A DNA stretch of 33,732 nt from a virus (taxonomy: Duplodnaviria > Caudoviricetes). Location: positions 1-33,732 of the IMG/VR virus record IMGVR_UViG_3300044670_001884, one strand, 5' to 3'. Positions 2,137-30,756 of the stretch are shown here, in pieces. The translations under genes and the position numbers were made by a program. The notes under the pieces were generated by a model. The model ran no database searches. It was not told where the DNA came from and was given only the letters and a program-made list of their open reading frames with translations. Numbering within the stretch: the stretch's first letter is position 1; each line of letters begins with the position of its first letter.

Positions 2137-2168
2137 TGTGACACTTGTGACACTTGTGACATGTCACA
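2137..2168. repeat. 9-bp repeat TGTGACACT x2 followed by the 14-bp palindrome TGTGACATGTCACA
   Basis: Copies at 2137 and 2146; palindrome at 2155-2168. Confidence 0.95.
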
Positions 2169-2334
2169 GGTGTTGCGGCACGAAATAAATATGGACATTT
2201 TCGGTTTTACGTTTTGTCCACTTTTTTGCACTCGCAAAGTACGATTAGTCTGCTGCATTTCTCGCACAAACACTTATTGCAGATGGTTTTCCCGTTTGAA
2301 TTACGTTTCCCACAATGATTGCAGGTGCTCTTGT

Positions 2335-2763
2335 ATGTCGCGGCCACGGTATGAAACTCCCGAAGATATGCAACGCGAAGCGGAAGTACGGCAAGCGTGC
2401 GAAAAAGCGTGGAGTTGCAAACTAGAAAAACTAGCTGCATACGAAAAACTAGATTATGCGGCTATCCGAGACGAAAAGCCGGTTGCGTTTGTGGAAATAA
2501 AGTGCAGAAACCACAAATTCGGAAAATTCCCAACTCTTATGTTCGGGACGACGAAAATTGAAAGAGCGTTGTTCTATCTACGAACTTTCGGGCTCGACAC
2601 TTTGCTCGTCGTGAGAGACGCGAGCGGTGAGTGCTATTACACCAAAATCGAGCCAAGCAAAATTAATTTGCATTACGGCGGCAGAACGACCAATACTCGC
2701 GATTCTGACGATGTGACGATGGTATGCCATATCGCAACCGAGCATTTCTCGCGATTGCGATGA
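2335..2763 (+). CDS. PD-(D/E)XK-superfamily nuclease-like protein (142 aa from ATG 2335)
   Basis: Motif pattern E(helix)...LDYAAIRD...FVEIKCR matches the D...ExK core. The track's upstream extension to 2161 looks non-coding; AGGTG precedes ATG 2335. Confidence 0.75.
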   Translation: MSRPRYETPEDMQREAEVRQACEKAWSCKLEKLAAYEKLDYAAIRDEKPVAFVEIKCRNHKFGKFPTLMFGTTKIERALFYLRTFGLDTLLVVRDASGECYYTKIEPSKINLHYGGRTTNTRDSDDVTMVCHIATEHFSRLR

Positions 2764-5627: not shown

Positions 5628-6137
5628 CTATTCTGATAGCTCGGTTTTCGCTTGCGATACTGCCTCTTGATAAGAAAGTCGTTTTCCGGCTTTGATTCCA
5701 GCGTTTACTAGATCAAGAGCTCTGTCTGCAACTTTTGCCGCAAATTTATCGCTGTTTACGTCGCCTGCGGCGAGAGTGCCGTCGTACCCGAGTGGGATCA
5801 TCGGCGAAGCTGGTGCCGACGCTGCTGCGTAATGCTGGATAAGCTCTACTCGCTTTTCAAACTCGTCGTTATCCATTTCTGAGCCGTTTGCATACAAGCA
5901 CTCGTCCATCTCGTTTTTGAGATTGACGGCTGAGTATTGGTGCGCGAGGTGAGTCAAACGCTCCTTTCGCTCTGCGTCGATTGCGTTCTGGCGTAGCTGC
6001 ACAACTTCGTGCTGCGTGGCTGCGTACATCTGCGCTTGCTCGGTTAGCAAAGAGTCGTTGTGCTTTTTGAGCTCGTTTAGCTCGGATCGCATTTGCTGGT
6101 TTTCAGCGGTTAAGGCTGCATACTGGTCGCGTCGCAT
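5628..6137 (-). CDS. Putative internally initiated scaffold (Mu Z-like, 169 aa)
   Basis: In-frame ATG at 6137 with GAGGA 7 nt upstream, at the start of the coiled-coil region. Confidence 0.5.
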   Translation of the reverse strand: MRRDQYAALTAENQQMRSELNELKKHNDSLLTEQAQMYAATQHEVVQLRQNAIDAERKERLTHLAHQYSAVNLKNEMDECLYANGSEMDNDEFEKRVELIQHYAAASAPASPMIPLGYDGTLAAGDVNSDKFAAKVADRALDLVNAGIKAGKRLSYQEAVSQAKTELSE

Positions 6138-7661
6138 AGAATTGTCCTCTGCGGTAGTGGAATAACGGTGATAGCCCTTAGTGGCTCCGAATTGTGCTGG
6201 TGGTGCTGCGGCGGCGTCTTGCGCTCCCGGTCCTGCGAGTATGCGAGCCAAAATACCCGGCTTCTTTTCTTCTGAGCCGCCTCCGCCTCCGCCCATCCCC
6301 TGAATTTTGTTCGCCACGGCGTCGACTGCCATATCCGAGCCAATCTCTTTTGCGGATTGCGTTAGTCCCTTTTTTGCGCCGCCACGTGCTGCCGCGCCGC
6401 CCGCCGTCCGTGCTGCTGTGCCTCCTGCTGCTCTCGCGGCTGTGCCTGCTGCAACTCGTCCGGCTGCCGCTAACGCCGGTGCGACGTTTCGATCAACGCC
6501 TTTTCGCATTGCTGAACCGGCTTGGTTGTTTAGCATGTTGTTCGCGTGGATCCCCTGCATCGCGGTCGTCAGCCCCATCTGACCTACGCCGTTTTGCTCG
6601 ATGGGCATTGGTGCATCTTCGACGTCCTCCTGCACGTACTCCTCCTCCATTTCGCCGCCTTCCATCATCGGGTCGCCCATCATCGGGTCGGGCTCCGCCA
6701 TCGGTGGCTCCGGCATCCCGCCCGCCATTGGATCATCCATAGGCATATCCCCGAGCTCATCTTGGCCGGTGTTGACGGGCTGTTCGTCTCCAATCATTGC
6801 GGCGGCGTTGCTAATCGTCTGCCATTCCTCGGTGCTCATTAAAGCGTTGAGCACTTCGCGAATCATGTCTTGGTCGACGGGGGTACTGCCGTACATATCT
6901 GATTTGCCTTTTTTTGCTGTTTTTAGTCGTGTATTAGAGCCGCCCGGAAACGACGCTATCGCTGGTGTCGCGTCGTATCGCTCGACGGTTATCGCTTCGG
7001 AGTCTGAATCGGCGGCATACTGCGCGGTGGTCGGAAGTGGCAATCGCGGTGCTTCCGACAACGCGGCGATGGGGTCGATATACCTACGACCGTTAGCTTT
7101 CAACTGCAACACTTCGACCGAACGATTTGGCCTGTCGCGCAACTGTTCGGTTTTGTCGTTACGCTGCCATTCGTTCGCAAAAATGCCCCATCTTGGGTTC
7201 TTTCTTCCGACCATTCCGAGCCTGTATGGTCCGACGAAACCAAGGTTTTTTGGTGGATCTGGGTCGCGATACGGTGGTGGAAGCGTGTGTTTGTCGACTA
7301 ACGCGGTGTACGCATCGGTGTCTTGTATTCTGTGATTGTTTTCGCGAACGATCTTTGTTAATTCGCTCAAATCGTAGTTTGTGATTTGCTCGGAGCCGTC
7401 TGGCCCGTAATTAACTTTTTCGTGCTCCATAAAAAACGGTCGCGGCTCCGTCGGCGAGTATTGCTCGGCTCCGAAATACTGAGCCGCTCGAGCGTACATC
7501 TCGTTGCCGCGAGCGTTGTCCCACGCTTGCCATATTACGCTGTTTCGTTGCCCCGGATCCGGTAATACCGACGCAAGTGCATAATGCGACCGCACGATAA
7601 AATCCTCTTCCGATTCATTCGCTTGCGGAACTGGCATTTGTGGCTGTACTGCTGTAACCAT
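5628..7661 (-). CDS. Prohead protease/scaffold (Mu I-like), 677 aa, with a long low-complexity middle
   Basis: N-terminal domain with candidate catalytic His (LVDKHT) and Ser (PNRSVEV...IAALSEAPRLP), C-terminal coiled coil, and canonical position before cement and capsid genes. Confidence 0.75.
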   Translation of the reverse strand: MVTAVQPQMPVPQANESEEDFIVRSHYALASVLPDPGQRNSVIWQAWDNARGNEMYARAAQYFGAEQYSPTEPRPFFMEHEKVNYGPDGSEQITNYDLSELTKIVRENNHRIQDTDAYTALVDKHTLPPPYRDPDPPKNLGFVGPYRLGMVGRKNPRWGIFANEWQRNDKTEQLRDRPNRSVEVLQLKANGRRYIDPIAALSEAPRLPLPTTAQYAADSDSEAITVERYDATPAIASFPGGSNTRLKTAKKGKSDMYGSTPVDQDMIREVLNALMSTEEWQTISNAAAMIGDEQPVNTGQDELGDMPMDDPMAGGMPEPPMAEPDPMMGDPMMEGGEMEEEYVQEDVEDAPMPIEQNGVGQMGLTTAMQGIHANNMLNNQAGSAMRKGVDRNVAPALAAAGRVAAGTAARAAGGTAARTAGGAAARGGAKKGLTQSAKEIGSDMAVDAVANKIQGMGGGGGGSEEKKPGILARILAGPGAQDAAAAPPAQFGATKGYHRYSTTAEDNSMRRDQYAALTAENQQMRSELNELKKHNDSLLTEQAQMYAATQHEVVQLRQNAIDAERKERLTHLAHQYSAVNLKNEMDECLYANGSEMDNDEFEKRVELIQHYAAASAPASPMIPLGYDGTLAAGDVNSDKFAAKVADRALDLVNAGIKAGKRLSYQEAVSQAKTELSE

Positions 7662-7701: not shown

Positions 7702-7995
7702 TTACAAATCAATACCGTAATCAGCGCCGGGTTCGCGAGCCTCGGCGTCTGCAAAATAGATTGATAGCGTGCCCCGTATCTTTTCGTGTGCCGTCATCGT
7801 CGCCCATTTTTTCGGATCGCCGTATTCCGGTTTGTAGTGCTCAAAACTAGCAAAATCATTTACCGAATCGGCTAACTGTTCGTCGTTGCTGTACCAACTG
7901 CCATCGCCCATTAACACTAAGCAATCGCCGTTTGAGGTGTGTATTTTTGCGAGCGGTAGTATTTCCGCAATCATGTCGCTTGGCTCGGCTTTCAT
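7702..7995 (-). CDS. Small acidic hypothetical protein (97 aa from ATG 7995); candidate peptidase partner or immunity protein
   Basis: ATG 7995 overlaps the upstream TGA (ATGA) and has GAGGA upstream; the track's longer start overlaps the peptidase gene. Confidence 0.65.
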   Translation of the reverse strand: MKAEPSDMIAEILPLAKIHTSNGDCLVLMGDGSWYSNDEQLADSVNDFASFEHYKPEYGDPKKWATMTAHEKIRGTLSIYFADAEAREPGADYGIDL

Positions 7996-10841
7996 ATCAA
8001 TCCTCTTAGGGCTGCTATGGTGTAATTGAAGTGGTCGGGGCTCTTTTCGGCTAATTCGATCCAATTCTCGTAAAGTTTCTGCGCTCCCATCGTCAAAACT
8101 TCCGACGATCTTCCGCCGTTGTAGTATTTGCCGGTGTAGGCATCATTGAATCCGTTTTGTGAACCTATTTCCCACGTTTCGTATCGTTTGCCGAGCGCTC
8201 TTGTTTTGTGCTTTTGAATCGCTGCCGACTGAAACGCTTTTGTCTTTGGTCCGATTGCAGTCTTGTGGTCGATTGAATGGCATAATTCGTGAATAAGAAT
8301 TGCCGTGTTATTCGATTGTCGTGGCGACATCTTTACGGTGTCTTGGTCGAAAAAATAAGCGCTCCTGTTGTAATATACGCCGTCCGACGGCTTCGCTGTC
8401 GTTACGTCCACGCTGTAATTTGTGAGCGCTCCCCCTGATACGTGCTCGAGCCAATCTACCGCTGCATCGAGACTTTGCTGCGAAACTTGCGTATTGCCTT
8501 TTAGCTTTGCGTCAATGGCTCGTTTTCCGACTGGTCTTTTCCGATTGCTAGGCATTTTGTCAATTTCGGTTCGCAGCAACGTCCGCATCTCTCTTTCAAT
8601 CGTGGCTATCTTTTGCTTCAACTCGTCGGATTTTGTGTGGTAAGCCTCGAGCTTCGTTTCGTCGTTAAATAATTTTTCTTTCCAATATGTGTCTCTCATT
8701 TGATTGAGCTCGTCTTTCAGCGACGTTAGCTCTGTATTCATCGACTTGTTTTTTGACAATAAGCTCTTGCGATAGCTGTCTACCGCGTCGTTGGCTTGCT
8801 TGCGTAGCTTTCTTCCTTCGCTCGCTTGAACGCGGAACTTTCCGGTTTTTTTGTGGTCGTCCAACCACTTTACGTACGGCTCGCTTTTCTTCGAGGTCTG
8901 TTCGCCCGGTGCCCAAGGAAGGTGCGAATATGTGTCTGTGATGTAGGCCGGTACGTCCTCTCCCGCTTTGACGGCTTTGCGGACTGCGTTACGGTGCTTT
9001 GTCATTAGCGTGTCGAGTGCTTGGCCGTCGAACACGCTGAAATTGGCAACTGTATATCCCCACGTTTGCTCGCTATTCGTATTGGCTTTTGTCGTAAACT
9101 CGAACGCCCGTAATAGCCCTCTGCTCGGCTGGTCGTAGTCCACTGAGTAGTCTTTGTCTTTGCCGATCTTTTTCAGCATACCTTTAAGCTGTTTTTGCCA
9201 TCCTTCGACCTGCGATATTTCAGTTTGCAACTCGCGGATCGTCTCTGAATCTAAGAACGATTTTCCCGAATCGAAAACGTGTTTTTTGAATATCTTTGCG
9301 ACTTCTCCCTTGCTCCGTTTCAGTTCTTCGACCGCTTGTTTGTGTTCCAGTATTGCGCGTGCGGTAACTTGCGTGGCGTCCAATTCTTTGAGCGGCGCGT
9401 TCAATATCTTTTCGCTTCCGCCAAGTCGCTTTACAACTGAATCAAATGATTTTTTATAGGTCGTCGAGACTTTTCCCTTTTGTTCTACGTACTTATCCCT
9501 CGCGTTTTGCATTTTTTCGGTCGTGCTCGCAAATCTCCCGGCCCCTTCTTCTCCTTTTTCGACGCGGTTCGGCTTCGACGTCTTAAACTTTTTCCACTCA
9601 CCGGGGTTTTTGCTTTTCGGGTTTACCACTCCGTCGTCTGTGACGAATATTACGTGGCCTTCTTCCTCGTCATTTGGGCGCACGGTGATAAATCGGCCAT
9701 TGTCGTTTGCTTTGTAGAACTCAACGGCGTCCGCGAATGAAGTCGCTTGAAACGGGACTGAAGTAAAATCGTTCTGGTCTGCTTCTTCTTCGTCGCCCCA
9801 TATTTCTTCATCATCTCCATACCAACGATTGAAGTCGTCGGTGTACTGCGATTGCATTTGTCGCTCTATATCGGCTATTTCCTCGTAGTCTGCGTTCTGC
9901 TCAAACAACTCCTGTTTTTGATTTAGTAAATCAATAAAACCTCTCGAGTAGTCTTGCTCGAGCTCGCTGTCTTGCTCGCGTTCCTCTGCGTAAAGCGTTC
10001 CGGCACGTTCCACGATAGCGGGATTGTTTAGAGCGACTGGCTTCGGTAGCGGTTTTCGCAACGCTTCAAATACGGCTTGCTCGTCGTCGTCTCCGCCCTG
10101 CATTAAGTATCCGGCGTGCGCACGAATAATCGGCAGTAAGTTAGTTTCGTCGTCTGAATACGTTTGCCCGCTGATAATTTGGTCGATGCCAAAATCCTCG
10201 AGTCCGCGAATGTCATTAGCCGCGCGTGCTCTTGCTTGCCACGCCGACAACCCACCGGGCCGGTTTGAGAATAGCTGTCGCATTGCATCGACGATTTCTT
10301 GTGATCGTTCGTTAGTCTCTTTTTGGATTTGCTTTGCTAACTCTTTGACTCTCGCAATGTCGCTTGGTGTTGGTTCGTAACCTTCTTCAAACGCCCGTGA
10401 CTTTGCTACGTCGTCGAAACTTTCCCTTTTTTTTCGGTCTATTAGCTGTCCCGATTTGGTAAGTGCACGCCATTCGCCGGTTTCTCGGTCGAATCGCATC
10501 ACTTTCTTTACGGCTTCGCTTTGCTTCAACTTTGGTTTGCTGTTCTTCCGTACCGTACCGTCCTTGTTTTTTTGTGGTTCCTGCAAAACGAACGGTCGCA
10601 AGCCAATGTCTTTAATTTTGTATTTTGGTTTGCCTTTTTCGGGCTTATCTATTACCTCGGGTTCGTAGCCTTTCCACTTACCGGGTTTGTCGCTGCGTGG
10701 ATTTACTGTTCCATCATCCTGCACCCATATAGCTTGTTTATCTCCGTCGCCGTCCGGGTCGACTGATATAAAACGTCCCTGTTTCTCGTTGGTCCAGTAT
10801 TGATCGAGAAAGTCCGCAACTGCTTGTGCAAAAGTTTTCAT
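7992..10841 (-). CDS. 949-aa multidomain head-associated protein with a duplicated N-type module and a C-terminal zincin metallopeptidase
   Basis: ILIHELCHSID (HExxH, 8277-8291) followed by YTGKYY...SEVLTMG, supplying a likely third ligand Glu; two copies of GRFI.V.P...I.V.DDG.VNP.S..PG.WK. Confidence 0.75.
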   Translation of the reverse strand: MKTFAQAVADFLDQYWTNEKQGRFISVDPDGDGDKQAIWVQDDGTVNPRSDKPGKWKGYEPEVIDKPEKGKPKYKIKDIGLRPFVLQEPQKNKDGTVRKNSKPKLKQSEAVKKVMRFDRETGEWRALTKSGQLIDRKKRESFDDVAKSRAFEEGYEPTPSDIARVKELAKQIQKETNERSQEIVDAMRQLFSNRPGGLSAWQARARAANDIRGLEDFGIDQIISGQTYSDDETNLLPIIRAHAGYLMQGGDDDEQAVFEALRKPLPKPVALNNPAIVERAGTLYAEEREQDSELEQDYSRGFIDLLNQKQELFEQNADYEEIADIERQMQSQYTDDFNRWYGDDEEIWGDEEEADQNDFTSVPFQATSFADAVEFYKANDNGRFITVRPNDEEEGHVIFVTDDGVVNPKSKNPGEWKKFKTSKPNRVEKGEEGAGRFASTTEKMQNARDKYVEQKGKVSTTYKKSFDSVVKRLGGSEKILNAPLKELDATQVTARAILEHKQAVEELKRSKGEVAKIFKKHVFDSGKSFLDSETIRELQTEISQVEGWQKQLKGMLKKIGKDKDYSVDYDQPSRGLLRAFEFTTKANTNSEQTWGYTVANFSVFDGQALDTLMTKHRNAVRKAVKAGEDVPAYITDTYSHLPWAPGEQTSKKSEPYVKWLDDHKKTGKFRVQASEGRKLRKQANDAVDSYRKSLLSKNKSMNTELTSLKDELNQMRDTYWKEKLFNDETKLEAYHTKSDELKQKIATIEREMRTLLRTEIDKMPSNRKRPVGKRAIDAKLKGNTQVSQQSLDAAVDWLEHVSGGALTNYSVDVTTAKPSDGVYYNRSAYFFDQDTVKMSPRQSNNTAILIHELCHSIDHKTAIGPKTKAFQSAAIQKHKTRALGKRYETWEIGSQNGFNDAYTGKYYNGGRSSEVLTMGAQKLYENWIELAEKSPDHFNYTIAALRGLI

Positions 10842-13800
10842 TTAACTAGCCGCCGAATACAAAAGTTTACTGCCCCTCGGTGTTTCTTCTTCGAATGTTC
10901 CAATGTTGTGTGCCGATTTTACGTTTTCGTAACCGAAAGCTACAAACACGTCCGCCGATACCGGCGTCGAGCCCGCTGAACCCATATCCGTAATGTCTTG
11001 AAATATGATTCCGTCATGCCCTTCCTGCTCGGCATACTCCGCCCACTCTCGCGTCGACATAGCCATTTTAATTTCAAATATGTCCTCTACTAAGTCTGAG
11101 GCTGGACCCCATCCCGCCGCCATATCAATTACTTTTGCTAAGCCATAGGGGTAATTCCAGTCGGCATTATCAAGGGCTTCTAAAAACTCTTTGTATTCGT
11201 GAGAATTTTCTATTTCTTCGTCGGTGAAATAATTTTCCGATAAAACTTCCCGAAAGTAACCGTCAAGGTCATCCGCTAGTTCGGCGGTCATGCCGTCGTA
11301 GCTCCCGTAAAGCTGTTCGGCAACAAATGGAACCTGCAAAAGTTCTTGAGCGTCGAGGGATCGAACGCTTGGCGCCACTGGTATTTCGTGCCAGTTACTC
11401 CTTCCGCCCTCGACGACTAACGGGTTGTTGATTCTGAATACAAGAGGGTAAACGCCGCGCGTGCCAATTCTTGCATCTATACCGGATTCAGAAATCCATT
11501 GATTCCATCTCACAATCAACTCATCTTCCGAAACCATCGGAATTAGCTTGTCTCTGTTTGCTAATAGTGCGAGGTCTGGTACATCTTTCGAGGATGCTCT
11601 GACGACTGCATATCGCGTCATTCCTTTTTCCGGCGAGTAAAATTGCAAAAGTTGATATTTATGGCTGTTCGCAAGCGAGGAGGCTATATCTTCTACACTT
11701 GTAGCTAACACGGGTGTAATGTCATCGGTGTACCTTCCACCTGTGTATGAAGCGGCAACGTCAACGTTTGTGGACCCATACACGTGTCCTTCAACGTCGC
11801 TACCTGCCATTTCTCCGAATCCGCCGTACGATGTTCCGTGAAATATAATGAGCGGTAGGCCCTCTTCGTCGACTGCTTTGTTATTGCCTGCCCATCGGTG
11901 ATATTCTGGATTGCTTGCTACTTTTAGTTGCATTTCCTCTAGCTGGTTTCTGGCAGCCTTTGTTAATAGCTCTGTTCTTCGCTCGTCGGTTTCGCTTCTC
12001 CACTGGCGATTCTCTTCGGCGGATAGACTGTAATCTCTCGCTTGCTGGTAGAGGTCATTGATTACCCTTTTGTCATTGCTGCTTAAAGCACCCGACTCTG
12101 GAAACAACTTTGCGGCTTCATCTAGTTCCGCTGCTAACGCTAAGGCGTCATTAGGGTCGTACCGCAAGGCGGCCCGCTGCACCCGTGATGCTGCGTTTAC
12201 CATTCTTTCGTACGCCTGCCTGCCACTTTCGTCGCCGTAACCAAAGTTTGCTTCTCCATAAACCTTTTTCTCTACGTTCAGTTTGTGTTGATCGTAAATT
12301 TGCAGGTTGTACTTGTAGTCTGGGATCAGTTTTTCTTGTTCAAATGGAATTTTGTCCCACGGCATGATGCCCGCCATTAGTGCTCTGTCACGTAGAACGT
12401 CGAGTGGGCTGCGTTGGTCGACCAATGACTTGCTGATTGGTCCGCGTAGGATTTCATACTTTGTTTTTTTCGGAAGGCCGTTTTCGTCTCTTTCAAAGAA
12501 ATGTCCGTATAAGGCGTAAACGACTTGCGGTTTCCCGTCTGCATCTGTTTTTTCTGGGTCGAAACCAACCTCCTCCTCGGTTAAACCTTCGTATTCTTTC
12601 CTGACTTCATTTTCTAAGAAATTTTGTGTCTGCCTTAATGTGTCGTATAAATTAACTGCATCTACCTGTGTCCGATTTCGGTGCAACTCTGCACTTCCCT
12701 CGAGACGTGTTTTTTCTTTGGATAGGTCATCTAATTCTTTGCGATCATCGGATCCCATCTTTTGAACCTTTCCGATTGCTTCTCTTGCCTCCCTCACTCG
12801 CTGCTTTATGTGCGTGTTAGAAGTGAATACGGGATACTGCCTCTCATACAGTGAGCGGTACTTGTATTCGGTAGCGACGTACGGCTGTATTTTGCTTTTC
12901 GGTATGCGGTGCACCTGTATGTCGTCGAAGTCTAGTGGTGAACTTTTTGCTGCTTGCTCCCAGTTAAAAAAATGTTCTGCTGCTTGTTTGTTCTGTAAAC
13001 GTTCTTGCCCTTCTTCTAGCGGTTCTTTCTCGTAGGCAAGTTTGTGCCGATTGATATGGTATTGCCTCTGTTTGTGTGCGTTATAACTCAACCAATACCG
13101 CAAATTCTTTTTCTCGATCAAATTAAATCCGGCTGGATCTTGGTCTTGTAGGTTATCTTCGCTTAGGTAGGTAGCGGCGTTAGGTGCCTGAGTAACGTGA
13201 TAGTAGTATTCGTCGTTTTCTTCGTCTGGGTGGTCGTTGTCGGCTCGGTGCACCCGCTTGTATAGTTCTTGCAATTTGCTGTCTCGAGGAAACAAATCTG
13301 GAACAATGTGCGAGCGGTCGAGATAATGCTTTTTATTTTCTTCGTCGTCGCTGCCCCAAGAATGTTCTCCGTCGAGGTGGTATTCGTAGTCGCTAATTAG
13401 TTTGGCCCCGTCGTTTTTTGAAATAGGCTGCTGCATGTACGATTTGTGGTCGAACTCTTTAAAATCTTCCGGCTGCACTACCGCTTCGTTTTGTGTGTAG
13501 TTCGGTATGCCTAATGTTTGCGTTGACCCGAACCCTTCTTCGAACTTCCTGCCCGTTGGTTTTGTGATCTCTAAGTTTTTGTAAGCCCTATCCGGCTCGG
13601 GTTCTGTTCCGTCGGTCAAATTGTCTGGATTGATCGGGTCGTCCTCTGCCGCGTATTGTGCTGAGTAATAATCTTCTTCGTCGTCTGATTCGCCGCCCAG
13701 CAACTCCTGACCTCTTTCGTTTAACCCTCTGTTTTTTTGCAATTCGATTACTTGACGTAGTGCATTGCTAGTTTTGTTGTTTCCTAGCAACTCGGCTGGA

Positions 13801-15395
13801 TCTATCTCAAACCCGGCAAGTAACAAATTGTCCTCGTTGTGATAAACGCCGGTTCTATACGCGGCAAACGCAAGTTGCGCCAATGTTTCATCATCGAGGT
13901 CTGGTATAAACTCGGCAAACAATTCTTTATCGTAGATATATCCGTCTAGGCTTTCGCCGTGCGGTAGGTCGTCGTCGTCGTACTGCTGGTATTCTGTAAC
14001 TAGATTGTCGAAAATTGCTTGTGCGTTTAGTAATCGCTTGTCGAGCACGCGATTAGCCGTTTCGCTTTCGTATTTGTCGATAGCCTTTTGTAGCGGCAGT
14101 ATTCTTTCGTAACCTTTCGGTACTGGCTTTGTGTCCGCCGGTGCTACTTGCTTTGCGAGCTCTTTTACGTCTCTCAACGTAATGTTTTTTAGATTTAGTG
14201 TGCCCTTTGAACGCGGCTCCCAAAACTTCAAGTTATCTTTGACGTGCTGGAACAAATAAAACGCATACGCTGGGTCAAGCTGATTTTTGTCGACCGTAAT
14301 GCCGATGCTTTCCTCGCGAAAATCTTTATGCGGCGTTCCTACTGTTTTTTCGCTGCCCTTTCGCGTAATCCAAAAATCAGCGTTCTCGTCATTGGTCTTG
14401 GCTGTAAACGCGGGCTGTGTTTGGCGTGTTGCCTTGACCTGTGACTCAATGTCGTCAAGCAATGCTCGAATATCATCGACGTGAAACGCTAGTTCTTCGC
14501 TTTCATTTTTAATTAGCCCATAAATTGCGTCGGTAAAATTTTTCCATTGACTCGGAGCGAACGTTTCCAGCGGATTTAATTTGTCCTTGGGCTCATGTTG
14601 CGAGTTGTACCACGCTAGTTCTTTTAGCTGCCCTGAGTCTAGAAAATCGCGTATATCTTCCGAATCGCTTTGTTCGTCGTAATGCCCGTGCTCGCTCATC
14701 AGCTTCCGCGCGTGCGTCCTCTGCCCCCAATCGTCGAGCTCAAATCCTTGCGGATCGTCCGATGGGCTGACTTTCGTCATCTTTCCCGTGTCGTACACGC
14801 GAATACGTCCGTCGGGATCGACTCCGTGCTGGACCGAATCGTTGATTCTCCACCCTGCATCCCACGCTTTTTGCATCTTCTCGCGATACTCTGCAATCTG
14901 CATCGGTGACAAGGATCCGCCGATTTCTAGCTTCGGGCGTATCGTAAAGCCCTTTTCGCCGTGTTCCTCAAATTGCTGGGGAAGGAATACGTCGTGCCCT
15001 TCGTTGTATGCTTGATTGTTAATTTCGGCCTGTCGTCTTGCGTCCGCGATTGCGTGCGTGTGGTGGCGGAAATTTTGCAGATTGTAGGGTACGACCGTCG
15101 TGACTTTTGCTACGTTCCCGTCGTGAGTGTCGTAAACAAGCCCGTCGTCGCCCTTACCGAGGAACGTCCCCTGTCCGTTTCTTAGAGTGTTTATCGCCGC
15201 GTTGCTCGGGTGCTCCGGCACGTCGGTGATTTGGTTTAGGTCATCGCTGAAATGCTTTACGCTGTCCTTCGGTAACGTAAAGGAGCCTGCTTCGGGATGG
15301 TGCAGGGTAGCGTTGTGCCCGTCGTGTTCCGTTACCGTAAAGTCGTACGTTCCGGTAATTTGTCGCTGGCCGTCGACGTTTTCGTATTTCGGCAC
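10842..15395 (-). CDS. Large polyvalent protein (>=1517 aa) with kinase-like, HsdS-TRD-like, central HxT ART-like and C-terminal ART-PolyVal-like domains; probably the C-terminal part of a frameshift fusion
   Basis: LGKGDDGLVY/VAKV/D/DTG kinase-like motifs; VDEEGLPLIIFHGT...VYPLVFRINNP...GHDGIIF...VAF..ENVKSAHNIGTF. The GTG start lacks a clear RBS and the frame is open upstream through the A9 run. Confidence 0.75.
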   Translation of the reverse strand: MPKYENVDGQRQITGTYDFTVTEHDGHNATLHHPEAGSFTLPKDSVKHFSDDLNQITDVPEHPSNAAINTLRNGQGTFLGKGDDGLVYDTHDGNVAKVTTVVPYNLQNFRHHTHAIADARRQAEINNQAYNEGHDVFLPQQFEEHGEKGFTIRPKLEIGGSLSPMQIAEYREKMQKAWDAGWRINDSVQHGVDPDGRIRVYDTGKMTKVSPSDDPQGFELDDWGQRTHARKLMSEHGHYDEQSDSEDIRDFLDSGQLKELAWYNSQHEPKDKLNPLETFAPSQWKNFTDAIYGLIKNESEELAFHVDDIRALLDDIESQVKATRQTQPAFTAKTNDENADFWITRKGSEKTVGTPHKDFREESIGITVDKNQLDPAYAFYLFQHVKDNLKFWEPRSKGTLNLKNITLRDVKELAKQVAPADTKPVPKGYERILPLQKAIDKYESETANRVLDKRLLNAQAIFDNLVTEYQQYDDDDLPHGESLDGYIYDKELFAEFIPDLDDETLAQLAFAAYRTGVYHNEDNLLLAGFEIDPAELLGNNKTSNALRQVIELQKNRGLNERGQELLGGESDDEEDYYSAQYAAEDDPINPDNLTDGTEPEPDRAYKNLEITKPTGRKFEEGFGSTQTLGIPNYTQNEAVVQPEDFKEFDHKSYMQQPISKNDGAKLISDYEYHLDGEHSWGSDDEENKKHYLDRSHIVPDLFPRDSKLQELYKRVHRADNDHPDEENDEYYYHVTQAPNAATYLSEDNLQDQDPAGFNLIEKKNLRYWLSYNAHKQRQYHINRHKLAYEKEPLEEGQERLQNKQAAEHFFNWEQAAKSSPLDFDDIQVHRIPKSKIQPYVATEYKYRSLYERQYPVFTSNTHIKQRVREAREAIGKVQKMGSDDRKELDDLSKEKTRLEGSAELHRNRTQVDAVNLYDTLRQTQNFLENEVRKEYEGLTEEEVGFDPEKTDADGKPQVVYALYGHFFERDENGLPKKTKYEILRGPISKSLVDQRSPLDVLRDRALMAGIMPWDKIPFEQEKLIPDYKYNLQIYDQHKLNVEKKVYGEANFGYGDESGRQAYERMVNAASRVQRAALRYDPNDALALAAELDEAAKLFPESGALSSNDKRVINDLYQQARDYSLSAEENRQWRSETDERRTELLTKAARNQLEEMQLKVASNPEYHRWAGNNKAVDEEGLPLIIFHGTSYGGFGEMAGSDVEGHVYGSTNVDVAASYTGGRYTDDITPVLATSVEDIASSLANSHKYQLLQFYSPEKGMTRYAVVRASSKDVPDLALLANRDKLIPMVSEDELIVRWNQWISESGIDARIGTRGVYPLVFRINNPLVVEGGRSNWHEIPVAPSVRSLDAQELLQVPFVAEQLYGSYDGMTAELADDLDGYFREVLSENYFTDEEIENSHEYKEFLEALDNADWNYPYGLAKVIDMAAGWGPASDLVEDIFEIKMAMSTREWAEYAEQEGHDGIIFQDITDMGSAGSTPVSADVFVAFGYENVKSAHNIGTFEEETPRGSKLLYSAAS

Positions 15396-15481
15396 TCCGA
15401 CGGTATCGCCGATGTTGTGCCCGATGCGTGTTGGTTGCGGGCCTCCCTGCCCGTCAATCGAATCATCTTGCCCGTACCTAT

Positions 15482-16846
15482 CTACTTTTTTTTTAAGTCT
15501 GTACTGTATCGCTCGACGGCTTCGGCGAACGTACTAAAAAGCGATTGCTGGTCGGGATGGTCGTTCATTCGATCAAACATTAGCTTTTGCTTGCCCTTTT
15601 CTTTTTCGTTCTCTAGCTTGAACTTCGTCGTTTTGCTTGCTTTCTTTCCTTCGCCGAACAGACCTAGTTGATCGCCCGATTTTGCGTCCTCGTTATCGAC
15701 TTTTTTGCTCGGCATTTCGATACCGGGTTTTTCCGATTTACCTTGTGCTTGTAGTCGGTCGACTTCTTTTTTTCCGTAACTTTTGCATTGCCGGTTGTAA
15801 TCTTCCTCGTCTTTGTAGTCCGAACGTTCGAGCGGAGTCATTTCGTTCCACGGCTTCATCCCAGCGGCTGCATATTGCCCCGCTTGGAATCTTCCTTTTA
15901 GCCTGCCTACTGCTGCGTCCGCAACCTTGTCGAGAATTTTGCCGCCCGCTCGCTTTGCAAGATTTAACCCGCTCGTTTTTGCGTACCCTTCGCCGAATCC
16001 TTTGCGAAAATCGCGAAACATACTCGGTTGCTCCGGTTCCGCCGGTAGATACCCGGTTTTTGCGAGCACGTCGCGTAAAGTTTGCTGTGCATTGCTTTGT
16101 GTAATTGCGAGACGCAACTGGTGCCCGTTTTCAATAGCCTCCGGGCTCGGTAGTCCGAGCATCTGCGCAAACTCTTGTAGTTGTTGCGGCGTCGCATCAA
16201 ACGCACCTGAAGCGACGATATGGCTGTCGAGCGTTGGATCCTGTCCTTGTAACTCGATTCCTGCTTGCGTCGTTTCGTATACTGGCGGGCTCGGTATGCG
16301 CTGGCCCGGTGGTGGTGGTGGCTTAACTATCTGTTGTTGCTTTTCCGCTTCCGGCTGCGGAGTTTGTTGCGGAGTGTCCTGCTTTTGTTTTTCGTTGCCC
16401 TGTTTTTGCTTCGGCTCGGATTGCTTTTCGATTTGCCCCGACCTTAGCAATAATTCCGCCCCATCTTTGCCCATTTGTTTTACGATGGTTTTATATTCAT
16501 CTTCACTAATAACCATCCTTTCTTTCGGCTTTGGTGATGCTGTTTGTGCGCTTTGTTGCTTGTTTTGGTTTTGCATCGCAGAACGCTCGGCTGACTGTTG
16601 TTTCAGCGGCTTCGTGCCGAACGTTGCCTGCATTTGCTTATCCAACTCGTCCAATGAGCTCGGGTCTGATGTTTTTGCAACTGGCTTTTGTTTTTGCGGA
16701 GTTTGAGCCTCTACCGCTTCCCTGAACGTCGTTTTTTTCTCTGGAACGGGTGGTGGTTGCTTTTTCGGCAACGGCTGTGGCTCTAGGCTGTAACCGTTGT
16801 CCACTTGTTTTCCAAAATCATCTAGCTGTTGGTAGGCTTGTCTCAT
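15482..16846 (-). CDS. Gln/Pro/Lys-rich, largely disordered protein in the MuF position (454 aa)
   Basis: ATGA overlap with the portal stop; low-complexity composition; several QxxLF/MF motifs near the C-terminus. Confidence 0.8.
   Translation of the reverse strand: MRQAYQQLDDFGKQVDNGYSLEPQPLPKKQPPPVPEKKTTFREAVEAQTPQKQKPVAKTSDPSSLDELDKQMQATFGTKPLKQQSAERSAMQNQNKQQSAQTASPKPKERMVISEDEYKTIVKQMGKDGAELLLRSGQIEKQSEPKQKQGNEKQKQDTPQQTPQPEAEKQQQIVKPPPPPGQRIPSPPVYETTQAGIELQGQDPTLDSHIVASGAFDATPQQLQEFAQMLGLPSPEAIENGHQLRLAITQSNAQQTLRDVLAKTGYLPAEPEQPSMFRDFRKGFGEGYAKTSGLNLAKRAGGKILDKVADAAVGRLKGRFQAGQYAAAGMKPWNEMTPLERSDYKDEEDYNRQCKSYGKKEVDRLQAQGKSEKPGIEMPSKKVDNEDAKSGDQLGLFGEGKKASKTTKFKLENEKEKGKQKLMFDRMNDHPDQQSLFSTFAEAVERYSTDLKKK
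15485..15494 (-). other. Candidate -1 frameshift or slippage site (A9G, containing A-AAA-AAG) immediately before a TAG stop
   Basis: TTA AAA AAA AAG TAG in frame 0; the -1 frame reads AAA AAA AAA GTA GAT AGG TAC... without a stop into 10842..15395. Confidence 0.65.
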
Positions 16847-18441
16847 AGGTAGGTTTCCACCCTGTTCTTAAACGCTCGTTTCATTGCGGCGCCGTTTGCG
16901 CTGTTTTGTTCGATTATCTGCCCCAAATCTATCGGTTTCGACGCTGGCACTCCCGCCGGTGGCATCGCGGCCATTTGCGATTCGACTTCCGGCATCCCCA
17001 TCGCGGCCTGCCCTGCTTGCATGAACGCCGGGTTTTGCAGAACTTCGTCGCTTGCATCTGGCATTGATACTCCAATGGTGTCGGCAACTTCGTCGGCCTT
17101 TATTTTCATTCCCATATCCCACGCCATTTTCATTGAAGCAAGCCGCCGATCACTGTCCGGTTCTTCGGTGCTGATTCGGAACTGCAAGCGAATGTTTGCG
17201 CTGCCGGGAAAGTTCCATAACTGCAACGGCCTTAGAAAATCGGTGGTAATTGTTTCTTCAAGGTTTACGCTGTCATACTGAACAATATCTGCGAGTGTCG
17301 CTAGGTGAGCGTCGGCAACTCCCGAACCTAAGCCGGTCGCTTCCGCTTCGCTGCTCAATACTTGCCCGAGAATAAATCGCTTTATCTTGTGGCCCCAATA
17401 CGTCCGAATCATGTCGATGGTCGTATTGATACCACCGAGCCCGGGTTCGATTAGCCTCGGAACGTAAAGCTCTTGGTCCTCGCCGGGCTGAATCGGTGCG
17501 AGAATAATCGTTCTTCCGCCTCCCATTGCTTCCTCGGCGGCTTTTTCCGTCGCCGCTTTTTGAGCCGGGCTACCTGCTTGGTACGGCCATATCTCTACGC
17601 CAAACGCTGCTCGGTCTAAATACTCGACTACTCTCTGCAAGCACTCAATCATCGCGTACCAATCCCAATAGATATAGTCGCGGATACCGACGCCGTTAAT
17701 TCGCCCCGCCATTTTCGGCTCGAAAAACGGCGCGTCCTCAATCATGTGTTTATGCACTACCGCCTGCCGACGTTCCCACTTGTCGAGCCAATAAACAAGC
17801 CCTTCCTCTGTTGGCTGCACTTTTTGCACGACTTCGCCCGTTGTCGGATCGAGGTAGTTTCTCGGTGCCGAATATGCGGTGCTAACCCTGATGCCGACTT
17901 GGCCGTTTACGTGCTTCAGCGTGCCGTCGTCGAATCGAAACTTTAGCTTGTCTCCGTTTCGCGGACTCCAACCGTTACAGCAAATTCGATTGATACCGCC
18001 GATCCGTTTATTTTCAAACGTCCCCAGCGTCATGTACCGCCCGTACCACAGCGCCTCGAGCAAGCACCGACGCATTTCTGTGAATCGCGGCGTTTCTTGC
18101 AAAATGTCCGTCATTGCCCTGACGAGCTCCTGCTGCTCGAAGCTGCTCGAGTCCTCTGGTTCAATCGACCAGTTTTGCAGGGCTACGGCTCGCTGCCGGG
18201 CGTGCAGGGATTCCATAATCCCGCAATCATTACGCATCCGATACGCATTTTCACGCGAGTCGGCGATTGCTTGATCGGCTGATAGGTAGGAATAGCTAAC
18301 TAATCCATACCTGCCGTTCACGCTGCTGACGTGAGGCAAAATCTCGCGGCTGAAATTGGGAGCTCCCGACGTTCCTGCCGCTGGATCTTTTGCTCGGCTG
18401 TATAGAAACTCGGCTGGTAACGCTGCGTCGTCGTTTTTCAT
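16843..18441 (-). CDS. Portal protein (DUF935 / Mu gp29-like, 532 aa)
   Basis: M.NDCGIMESLHARQRAV...WSIEP, LLEALWYG, YLDRAAFG, IKRFILGQVLSS....GLGS.VA..H, LEETITTDFLRPL..WNFPG are typical DUF935 segments. Confidence 0.85.
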   Translation of the reverse strand: MKNDDAALPAEFLYSRAKDPAAGTSGAPNFSREILPHVSSVNGRYGLVSYSYLSADQAIADSRENAYRMRNDCGIMESLHARQRAVALQNWSIEPEDSSSFEQQELVRAMTDILQETPRFTEMRRCLLEALWYGRYMTLGTFENKRIGGINRICCNGWSPRNGDKLKFRFDDGTLKHVNGQVGIRVSTAYSAPRNYLDPTTGEVVQKVQPTEEGLVYWLDKWERRQAVVHKHMIEDAPFFEPKMAGRINGVGIRDYIYWDWYAMIECLQRVVEYLDRAAFGVEIWPYQAGSPAQKAATEKAAEEAMGGGRTIILAPIQPGEDQELYVPRLIEPGLGGINTTIDMIRTYWGHKIKRFILGQVLSSEAEATGLGSGVADAHLATLADIVQYDSVNLEETITTDFLRPLQLWNFPGSANIRLQFRISTEEPDSDRRLASMKMAWDMGMKIKADEVADTIGVSMPDASDEVLQNPAFMQAGQAAMGMPEVESQMAAMPPAGVPASKPIDLGQIIEQNSANGAAMKRAFKNRVETYL

Positions 18442-18443
18442 TA

Positions 18444-19424
18444 TTAGCCTCTGTCTGGGGCGCCTCTGTCCGGCGTTCCTCGGTCTGTTTGTCCGTAATC
18501 CTGTGCCGGTAGAGTGCTACGCCGGAAGCCGCGTCGGTATAGCTCGCGTTCTCGGTTCGTCGCGTTCGCCGGAAGTCTAGCATTAAGTTGGCTTGGTCTG
18601 CCAAGTGGTTTTAGATACCGCGTCCTGAAACCTTTTCGCGTCGCCTTTCTCGGAACGTACTCGCCTGTGACTGCAACAAGACGATATTGCACTTGATGCC
18701 CGAAAATCGTTCCTCTCACGCGTAGGTGGTCCCATACGGCGGATCCCGGCGATTCTATAGCTTGCGTCCTGAATCGCCTGTATTTTTGCGTTGTTACGCC
18801 GTAGTAAGCGTAAGTAGGACCGGGGCCGGTTCTCGGGGAGTTTTTGCTGACTGCCGGTGCGAGAAACGTGACATACAATATTCCAGAGGCTTTGCTTTCT
18901 GGCTGCCAAAAATACGAATAAACGTTGCTGCTCGTTACCCGCACCGCGTTCTGCATTGCAAGCTGAAATTCGTCCTCGTCGTAATCTAAGCTACGTCCAA
19001 GCGTTTCGATTTCGTCATATTCTCGCTCGCGTTCTTGCTCTGCCGCCCTTCTTCTTTGCCACTCGGCAACCCATTCGTCCTCGGTGAATCCGCGTCTACC
19101 TGCCGGGAACGGTGGCGGTAGCCTTCCTCCCGGGTCGATAATATCGTCAAGTGGCGGCCTCGGTGGTGGTGGTGGCGCGACTCCGACCGCCGGGGGCTGC
19201 GGCTGGCCTATTACTTGGTCTTGCCTGACTCGCTGAAGCCTAGACCGTAGGCCCATATCCTCGAGTCGTCTGCGGAGGCTTCGACGTATGCCCTGCCCTG
19301 CCTCGATTGGCGGCTTTTCGATGTAAACGCTGCCCTCTGTACGATTGTTGCGAGTGCCGAGCCCTCCGGGTCTACCAAGGAGAAAATCGCGTGAGAGTCT
19401 TGCAAGTCTGCTTAATGAGCTCAT
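18444..19424 (-). CDS. Arg/Pro-rich basic protein with a KTSC-like domain (326 aa)
   Basis: VTSSNVYSYFWQPES...LYVTF...TYAYYGV....Y..F....ESPGSAVWDHLR matches the KTSC pattern (~18720-18944); TAATG coupling to terL. Confidence 0.7.
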   Translation of the reverse strand: MSSLSRLARLSRDFLLGRPGGLGTRNNRTEGSVYIEKPPIEAGQGIRRSLRRRLEDMGLRSRLQRVRQDQVIGQPQPPAVGVAPPPPPRPPLDDIIDPGGRLPPPFPAGRRGFTEDEWVAEWQRRRAAEQEREREYDEIETLGRSLDYDEDEFQLAMQNAVRVTSSNVYSYFWQPESKASGILYVTFLAPAVSKNSPRTGPGPTYAYYGVTTQKYRRFRTQAIESPGSAVWDHLRVRGTIFGHQVQYRLVAVTGEYVPRKATRKGFRTRYLKPLGRPSQLNARLPANATNRERELYRRGFRRSTLPAQDYGQTDRGTPDRGAPDRG

Positions 19425-30149: not shown

Positions 30150-30425
30150 CGTTTTGCCGCTTCCCTGTTCATCTGCGATCTGTGCCTTTCGTATTGGCTA
30201 ATCGCTTCGTCGCGTGTGTCAGTATTCGCGAAAAACCACCCTTTTCCCTGCCCCCCACTCACCGCTGTAAGAGCTCCGAGCCTTACGATTTCTGCTTGCC
30301 TAAGCCTGCTTCGGGTGCTATTTAACCACAAACTGAACGCTAGGTCGTAGCGTTTTCTGATTAGATGACATAGGTCGCCTGCTCCGTACGTAGCGGCTAG
30401 GTCCGAAAACATTACGTTTTTTTTT
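30146..30425 (-). CDS. Post-frameshift (gpT-like) portion of the tail assembly chaperone
   Basis: -1 frame (KKNVMFSDLAATYG...) is open from the A9 run to the stop overlapping the next ATG; no convincing start or RBS of its own. Confidence 0.6.
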
Positions 30426-30756
30426 GAAGCCGAAAGCACCACAAGTCAAACGCATCGACTAATCCAATGAGCTCCGCGATTGTCATACCGTTTCCCGTGC
30501 TTTCATCGAGACGCTGTATTCCGAACGCTCGAGACGCCGCATTGGCAACAATTTCCATAGAAACTGGATCATTCTGCAACGCTTCATCAAGGTGTCGTGG
30601 CAGATAGTCGGGATCGGTTTTCAATGCCATCGCTATTTGCATCGGATCCGCGTGGCGGGTTCCCTGATGCGTTTCGTAGCTGAATATGCACCGCTGCAAG
30701 TGTTCCCGACGTGCTCTTCGCTCGAGCCTTCTTTTTCGCCACCGCTGAAAAAACAT
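30412..30756 (-). CDS. Tail assembly chaperone (gpG-like, 114 aa from ATG 30756)
   Basis: Small helical ORF ending QKKT* on a slippery run upstream of the tape-measure-like gene; TAATATG coupling. Confidence 0.6.
   Translation of the reverse strand: MFFQRWRKRRLERRARREHLQRCIFSYETHQGTRHADPMQIAMALKTDPDYLPRHLDEALQNDPVSMEIVANAASRAFGIQRLDESTGNGMTIAELIGLVDAFDLWCFRLQKKT
30417..30425 (-). other. -1 frameshift slippery site (A9)
   Basis: CTT CAA AAA AAA ACG TAA in frame 0; TCA AAA AAA AAC GTA in the -1 frame. Confidence 0.7.

Follow-up and report, generated by a model that had tools for sequence, protein, structure and literature searches.

Between the portal gene and the prohead protease/scaffold gene of an uncultured aquatic phage we found a block of tightly coupled ORFs, here called A, B, C and D, that encodes several enzyme domains and no MuF domain detectable by profile. 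The block is a MuF-less variant of the phage polyvalent proteins, probably working like the MuF toxins and the internal proteins of T4 and lacking the domain by which MuF toxins are recognised. In its broad outline this idea has been published, under the name of phage polyvalent proteins (Iyer et al. 2017, main text, PMC5512222), and the locus adds to it a scaffold-end helix, a slip site and a MuF-type peptidase pair. The original prediction, of a multi-enzyme payload independent of MuF, stands with regard to the missing MuF, the several enzyme domains, their swapping, the slip site and the shared motifs, whereas a TRD and a second ART domain were not confirmed.

The window is the whole stretch of 33,732 nucleotides, a 33.7-kb virus record that is ~77% complete. 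Its minus-strand genes are ordered terminase, a 326-aa gene, Mu-type portal, A, B, C, D, a 677-aa gene, cement, major capsid and adaptor, which places the block among late virion genes, with the portal on one side and the protease/scaffold gene on the other. Host-related labels were Planctomycetaceae for a protease homologue, Alphaproteobacteria for a C homologue and, for one contig, a position inside a Gammaproteobacteria MAG. A search for look-alike stretches in other genomes found none. The genes and domains are as follows.

16843..18441, minus strand: Mu-type portal, Portal_Mu (DUF935), E = 5.6e-32; upstream boundary of the slot
15482..16846, minus strand: ORF A, 454 aa, with a P/Q/K-rich N-terminus, a small helical region and a C-terminal helix plus VERYS motif
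15474..15494, minus strand: conserved -1 slip site (A9-G, then the stop of A), which would yield an A-B fusion of ~2000 aa
10842..15533, minus strand: ORF B, polyvalent protein, an open frame of 1563 codons; 1517 aa if read from a GTG (10842-15395)
14679..15212, minus strand: minimal protein-kinase-fold domain, B108-285, from predicted fold and Atlas clusters
14151..14414, minus strand: DUF6943-like domain, B374-461 (24/30 Atlas matches), earlier called "TRD-like"
13647..13661, minus strand: AQYAA motif in an acidic linker, ~12 residues past the insertion point of a 174-aa module found in a relative
12801..13238, minus strand: possible second ART-like domain, diverged here, suggested by a motif pattern in relatives
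10845..11954, minus strand: ART-PolyVal domain with inserts, ending in LLYSA (PF18760, E = 3e-6)
7992..10841, minus strand: ORF C, 949 aa, with two repeat copies and a C-terminal peptidase
7995..8543, minus strand: zincin-like HExxH...E metallopeptidase at the end of C, of the type seen at the C-terminus of some MuF proteins
7702..7995, minus strand: ORF D, 97 aa from an ATG, acidic; by its position a candidate inhibitor or immunity protein of the C peptidase
5628..7661, minus strand: predicted prohead protease fused to scaffold, 677 aa, with a tyrosine-motif-rich scaffold and a SYQEAV helix at its end

The four ORFs had been predicted at 454, 1517, 949 and 97 aa in tight coupling. They are real and abut or overlap: the portal stop overlaps the start of A, the ATG of C directly follows the TAA of B, and the stop of C overlaps the ATG of D, for which the ORF program gives 120 aa from a TTG. 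The predicted acidic linkers are also present, at B617-640 (38% D/E) and C335-360 (46% D/E). As to the flanks, the DUF935 portal was confirmed, but the supposed Mu I-like protease had no Mu-like protease match in Pfam and its model matches gp21 and herpesvirus proteases.

ORF A matched no family in profile searches. B joins at least two disparate predicted activities in one chain, a kinase fold and an ART-PolyVal domain. Structure model and Atlas clusters agree with the kinase-like domain that had been foreseen: the nearest named clusters include Kinase-PolyVal and T7 kinase, the kinase part of the B model has a pLDDT mostly of 70-87 with two short low stretches, and all 50 matches listed against VIA are kinase-fold chains (best Z 11.3), as Foldseek also finds. 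This fold search was run with the multi-domain B model and the matches listed cover its kinase part, for which (B108-285) the modelling supports a kinase fold. The canonical kinase catalytic loop is D-x4-N; the loop here is atypical, D-x-x-Q, and invariant in 6/6 sequences.

Where one or two ART-like domains had been proposed, one was recovered. The ART-PolyVal domain scored 28.5 bits in the window, under the Pfam cut-off of 31.2, with relatives reaching 81.9 bits, and PF18760 was found in 8/11 B homologues. The possible second ART, for which a search of representatives found 2 proteins, had no family or fold support in profile and fold searches. Nor was the TRD-like label confirmed: the region is only DUF6943-like, its model has a pLDDT under 50, and a sequence search of the PDB gave no match, so that TRD stays a possible resemblance. 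Across the block, fold and profile searches upheld the kinase, one ART and the HExxH peptidase but neither the TRD nor the second ART. Searches of PDB sequences with profiles of the DUF6943-like, kinase, peptidase and protease domains returned nothing informative, and a search of a phage collection gave one weak match to B.

The cargo diverges much faster than the portal or the capsid. Against three complete genomes, identity was 98/95/91% for the portal and 96/84/79% for the capsid, compared to 66/43/33% for A, 59/41/33% for B and 79/40/34% for C. Domains in the slot also swap among related phages: the DUF6943-like domain sits in A, not B, in some relatives, and more distant lineages have other domains. 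In the closest relative (L001, 14725-15240, plus strand) a 174-aa extra module lies ~12 residues before the AQYAA site of B; the window has none. This module, with the pattern GFI-x-DG..DHR..AIRFD, occurs in B of relatives and in L056; it has no Pfam match and one weak PHROG match, of function not known. Four distant lineages (protease 37-46%) have ART-PolyVal, InPase, LPD1, LPD3, zeta-toxin, GNAT and SAM-lyase-like domains in the slot, and one distant relative fuses cargo to portal in a protein of 1970 aa. Because the slot holds other polyvalent domains in distant relatives, we regard the block as a MuF-less variant of the polyvalent proteins. Domains typical of that family are PF18760, the Kinase-PolyVal cluster and the zincin peptidase here, and LPD1, LPD3 and InPase in the distant relatives. 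G005 has a serine protease gene, which we take to be trypsin-like, at the centre of its cargo slot (L010, 17433-18374, plus strand).

ORF A ends in nine A followed by G-TAG, after which the -1 frame leads on into B. The 19 letters of this site are identical in the window, L001, L003 and L008. An assembly error at the A run was ruled out: in contigs of three other studies the run is crossed with no indel (3/4; the fourth does not reach it), and the same A/B frame offset is kept in 3 relatives. The annotated GTG of B (15395) is GTT in L001, and in the 31 codons before it 7/9 changes fall at third positions, making it unlikely as the main start of B. Without a conserved start of its own, B probably arises as a minor product of -1 slippage, fused to A; a fusion of ~2000 aa is thus a likely product in this phage, judging from the sequence. 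The marks of a programmed -1 frameshift were found, namely a conserved slippery site, an open -1 frame under selection and no alternative start. Hairpins downstream of the site, considered without a shuffle control, differ among genomes. An A9 run permits transcriptional slippage too. A stop, GAGGA and an ATG make up the junction, in place of the slip site, in L005, L006, L015 and L052-L054, a set that includes near-duplicates. With a slip site in some relatives and a separate start in others, B can be made either way. The frameshift that had been proposed is consequently backed by a conserved -1 site, but its supposed role in setting the dose is not, as a separate start replaces the site in related phages. 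Read-through from B into C was rejected as not conserved: the two genes share a frame in the window, whereas in L006 and L015 they do not. A second A9 run (30412-30442, minus strand) ends a 126-aa ORF of the tail region, where an overlapping ORF leads to the next gene; this may be a tail-chaperone frameshift.

The 677-aa gene had no protease match in Pfam, NCBIfam or PHROG, nor in the phage collection. Its N-terminal domain was modelled with a pLDDT of 86.6, and the three best matches of the model were T4 gp21 (Z 6.7, rmsd 4.4, 117 aligned), the VZV protease (Z 6.1) and the HCMV protease (Z 4.8). These scores are modest (Z under 8, Foldseek E-value 0.14). H125 and S181 are invariant in 105/105 aligned sequences. 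The product is predicted to be a prohead protease of the gp21/assemblin fold, of a family with at least 271 members that has no profile in the libraries searched. Two variants of the gene were seen among relatives. In L056 (9674-12601, plus strand) a second copy, of the scaffold alone, comes after the protease/scaffold gene, and two tandem cement-like genes come next. In G005 (L030, 6765-9346, minus strand) protease and scaffold lie in two overlapping reading frames, which may reflect a split gene, a frameshift or an error.

The scaffolds of this family are rich in a tyrosine motif, x-E-[RK]-Y-[SA], in the context [VK]-E-[RK]-Y-[SA]-[ARK]. From 120 of the 271 homologues we removed 16 near ones and one fusion, and 95/103 of the rest had the anchor that delimits the scaffold. 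The motif occurred 476 times in these scaffolds vs 106 expected (4.5-fold), and above expectation in 94/95. The window's own scaffold sites are kept across relatives, two of them directly after the protease domain. The simplest reading is that they are self-digestion sites.

In the cargo, a simple rule found no enrichment of the motif (67/601 tyrosines vs 53 expected). A profile trained on 89 other scaffolds recovered 52/601 cargo vs 65/1398 control tyrosines (p = 5e-4) and 11/15 of the tyrosines directly before a PR..GxF tag, and within-protein shuffles gave p = 0.035 for near and 0.025 for far relatives, although related genomes are not independent in these statistics or in those of the helix below. 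In the window alone the count was 9 vs 6.5 (p = 0.21, not significant). The cargo signal is real at the level of the family and weak in this genome alone. Of the predicted short shared motifs, therefore, their presence in both cargo and protease/scaffold was borne out, but not an enrichment of tyrosine sites within the window by itself. The motif is conserved at ORF ends and module borders, and the top sites in the window include A447, B627, A288, C690 and B1559. Strong sites are missing from the stretch that separates the kinase from the DUF6943-like domain and from that separating the possible ART from ART-PolyVal, so cutting of B into single domains is not supported.

Scaffold C-terminal ends have the form [IV]-[ST]-[YWF]-x-E-A-L, and the window's own scaffold has its SYQEAV helix at 5658-5675. 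A cargo motif, [ST]F-x-E-A-V, scores like this scaffold helix in the near clade only. Four copies are found in A and C.

16712..16729, minus strand: scaffold-like helix in A, aa 40-45; rank 9 of 10,644 positions
15503..15532, minus strand: helix plus tyrosine at the end of A, aa 439-448; top of 10,644 positions, tyrosine score 4.2
10797..10835, minus strand: N-terminal helix plus tyrosine of C, aa 3-15; F4, V8, L12 and Y15 invariant in 23/23
9714..9740, minus strand: internal helix plus tyrosine of C, aa 368-376; F369, A372 and Y376 invariant in 23/23, helix-profile rank 6

A pattern devised by eye from the same sequences gave 11 matches in the cargo of three near genomes vs 0.37 expected. With a profile built from 74 of 97 distant scaffold ends, the best of the 10,644 window positions was A438 (12.5 bits), compared to 12.1 for the window's own scaffold end; other cargo copies ranked 6, 9 and 14, and a tail-region protein ranked 3 (11.5). 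The profile found 11 matches vs 2.4 expected in the cargo of the near clade and was not enriched in the four distant lineages (2 matches in 9,795 aa). In C, two copies of a ~55-aa repeat each open with a scaffold-like helix plus tyrosine. This repeat is confined to the C family (23 proteins, with 8000 candidates scored), in which the helix residues are invariant in 23/23 proteins, many only 32% identical. In P22, assembly requires the helix-turn-helix at the scaffold C-terminus, and fusion to truncated scaffold gets cargo packaged (PMC9962691). Taken together, the helix match, the invariance of the C helices and the P22 precedent make loading by mimicry plausible, on sequence grounds.

The mechanism that we tentatively favour, with a little less than even confidence, is that of a MuF-less polyvalent cargo that is loaded by scaffold-like helices, cut by the prohead protease into few multi-domain pieces and injected. 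Short helices resembling the last helix of the scaffold would load A, B and C into the assembling prohead; the A-B fusion would carry the helices of A, and C its own. The predicted prohead protease would cut the cargo at scaffold-type tyrosine motifs. The pieces would be injected with the DNA, and the predicted kinase, ADP-ribosyltransferase and peptidase would act on the host, while D would restrain the peptidase in the producing cell. A broader form, that MuF has been replaced by molecular mimicry through a two-part address code of capsid-binding helix and cut sites, with swappable domains and a slip site that sets the load of the largest chain, is possible but doubtful.

Precedents for such cargo exist. 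The internal proteins and Alt of T4 and the ejection proteins of jumbo phages are head cargo that bears a short targeting peptide and is cleaved by the prohead protease at a motif also present in the scaffold. They are mostly single proteins whose N-terminal propeptides are cut after glutamate. The protease fold here is the same as in T4 (gp21), by the model. Unlike in T4 and jumbo-phage cargo, the signals here recur within polyvalent chains and at their ends and are centred on tyrosine. The P22 scaffold tag offers a second parallel, as the C-terminal helix region of that scaffold suffices to bring cargo into the procapsid (PMC9962691); tagging there is engineered, whereas here a natural copy of the helix in the cargo is suggested by the sequence.

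It could also be that the cargo is packaged but that helix and tyrosine together form a single recognition signal of the maturation protease, with loading achieved differently (through portal contact, the repeat domain or a PR..GxF tag) and an incidental resemblance to the scaffold end. The cargo helix does usually have a tyrosine within 14 residues after it, and one relative, as noted, fuses cargo to portal. The tag, PR..G[KRQ][FW], is repeated in slot proteins of L010, L056, L060 and L044 (18 in cargo, 2 in controls). Distant lineages lack a helix match, yet have 14/18 of the cargo tags. However, the terminal helix of the scaffold, which fits the same profile, has no tyrosine motif after it, and the strict tag has 0 matches in the window, where only degenerate forms occur (e.g. 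C425-437). We consider this explanation unlikely.

The C-terminal end of C raises the question of a second processing enzyme. The HExxH peptidase domain that had been proposed there held up, its HExxH...E being invariant in 23/23 C homologues, and it matches the domain that ends the MuF proteins of two cultured phages, Flavobacterium phage pippi8-1 and Bacillus phage BpsS-36. Both of those MuF-peptidase genes directly follow the portal and are each followed by a small ORF. D is kept after C in near relatives; compared to the small ORFs of pippi8-1 and BpsS-36, and to other small ORFs, it shows no detectable likeness, and in this it differs from those phages. With a MuF-type peptidase and a small ORF behind it, C and D resemble the toxin and immunity genes of a MuF locus from which MuF is missing, and D, from its position, likely restrains the C peptidase in the producing cell. 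One could instead suppose that the packaged cargo is processed by this metallopeptidase or not at all, and that its tyrosine motifs are mostly chance or relics. Zincin-like peptidases have been proposed as processing enzymes (PMC5512222, main text), and the invariance of HExxH...E and the window-only motif statistic fit this. We find it rather improbable: the scaffolds share the motif strongly and it is kept where ORFs end and modules meet, some distant slots have no HExxH-type peptidase by Pfam, and a peptidase that comes last and is followed by a small ORF is the layout of a toxin and its immunity protein (PMC5576092).

MuF polymorphic toxins (Jamet et al. 2017, PMC5576092) resemble the block in lying directly after the portal, in a C-terminal metallopeptidase and in a small ORF thereafter; 20% of them have such a peptidase and 89.4% a small ORF after the gene. 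The block likewise has a C-terminal toxin-type domain and then an ORF of <150 aa (the peptidase and the 97-aa D). Unlike MuF toxins, it has several enzyme domains over three ORFs and no detected MuF domain; the N-terminal MuF1/MuF2 domain (PF04233, PF06152) that characterises these toxins was not found. PF04233 matched 0/1 own record and 0/5 and 0/2 related records, and PF06152 0/5 related records, while control genomes were positive in both searches; all seven relatives were at least 99% complete. The genome-wide search for Phage_Mu_F thus gave no match in the window or in seven complete relatives, and, as the original prediction had noted, an HxNCRC-type motif is absent from all slot proteins. 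By profile, then, the slot proteins are without a detectable MuF domain.

A highly diverged MuF fold might still hide in A or C and make this an ordinary MuF polymorphic toxin locus. Slot, peptidase and small downstream ORF are the same as in MuF genes, and MuF3 and MuF4 were missed by earlier profiles (PMC5576092). This is nevertheless highly improbable given the absence of PF04233 and PF06152 from the records searched and of any MuF family match among the C homologues (0/23). The C profile aligns to the MuF protein of pippi8-1 over the peptidase only (118 columns, probability 97.7), and A and C have one cysteine each. That the proteins are late cytoplasmic factors acting in the producing cell, as is allowed for ARTs of such a kind that counter immunity against the packaging machinery (PMC9503650), is even less probable in view of the portal fusion in a relative, the motifs shared with the scaffold and the polyvalent protein found by proteomics in phi24B virions (10.64898/2026.04.10.717836).

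The nearest described relatives are the phage polyvalent proteins of PMC5512222, which are large, multidomain and encoded near virion genes, with ART-PolyVal, truncated kinase and zincin peptidase domains, and are proposed to be injected; relatives of the present phage add InPase, LPD1 and LPD3. In the main text of PMC5512222 processing by the zincin peptidase is proposed; the motifs of the present locus instead suggest the prohead protease and the scaffold, and a slip site connects two of its ORFs. A count of the words "linker", "short motif" and "frameshift" in that main text gave 0 for each (the supplement being outside this count). In the literature search, which covered titles and abstracts and had subscription papers and supplements outside its scope, we found none describing scaffold-mimic loading or prohead-protease cutting of polyvalent proteins. 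For the MuF-less polyvalent proteins, loading and processing now both have concrete, mutable sequence candidates, and the scaffolds of the protease family give a predicted cut motif. If the helix does serve as a loading tag, nature would have its own version of the engineered scaffold tags, and the helix would aid the search for cargo genes in uncultured phages.

Two further genes of the window deserve mention. The 326-aa gene in the gap between terminase and portal (18444-19424, minus strand) carries a weak KTSC-like domain and closes with short G[TA]PDRG repeats, and similar genes occupy the same position in the distant relatives L010 and L060. A PDDEXK_14 nuclease gene (2161-2763, plus strand, E = 7e-28) lies on the strand opposite to the structural genes.
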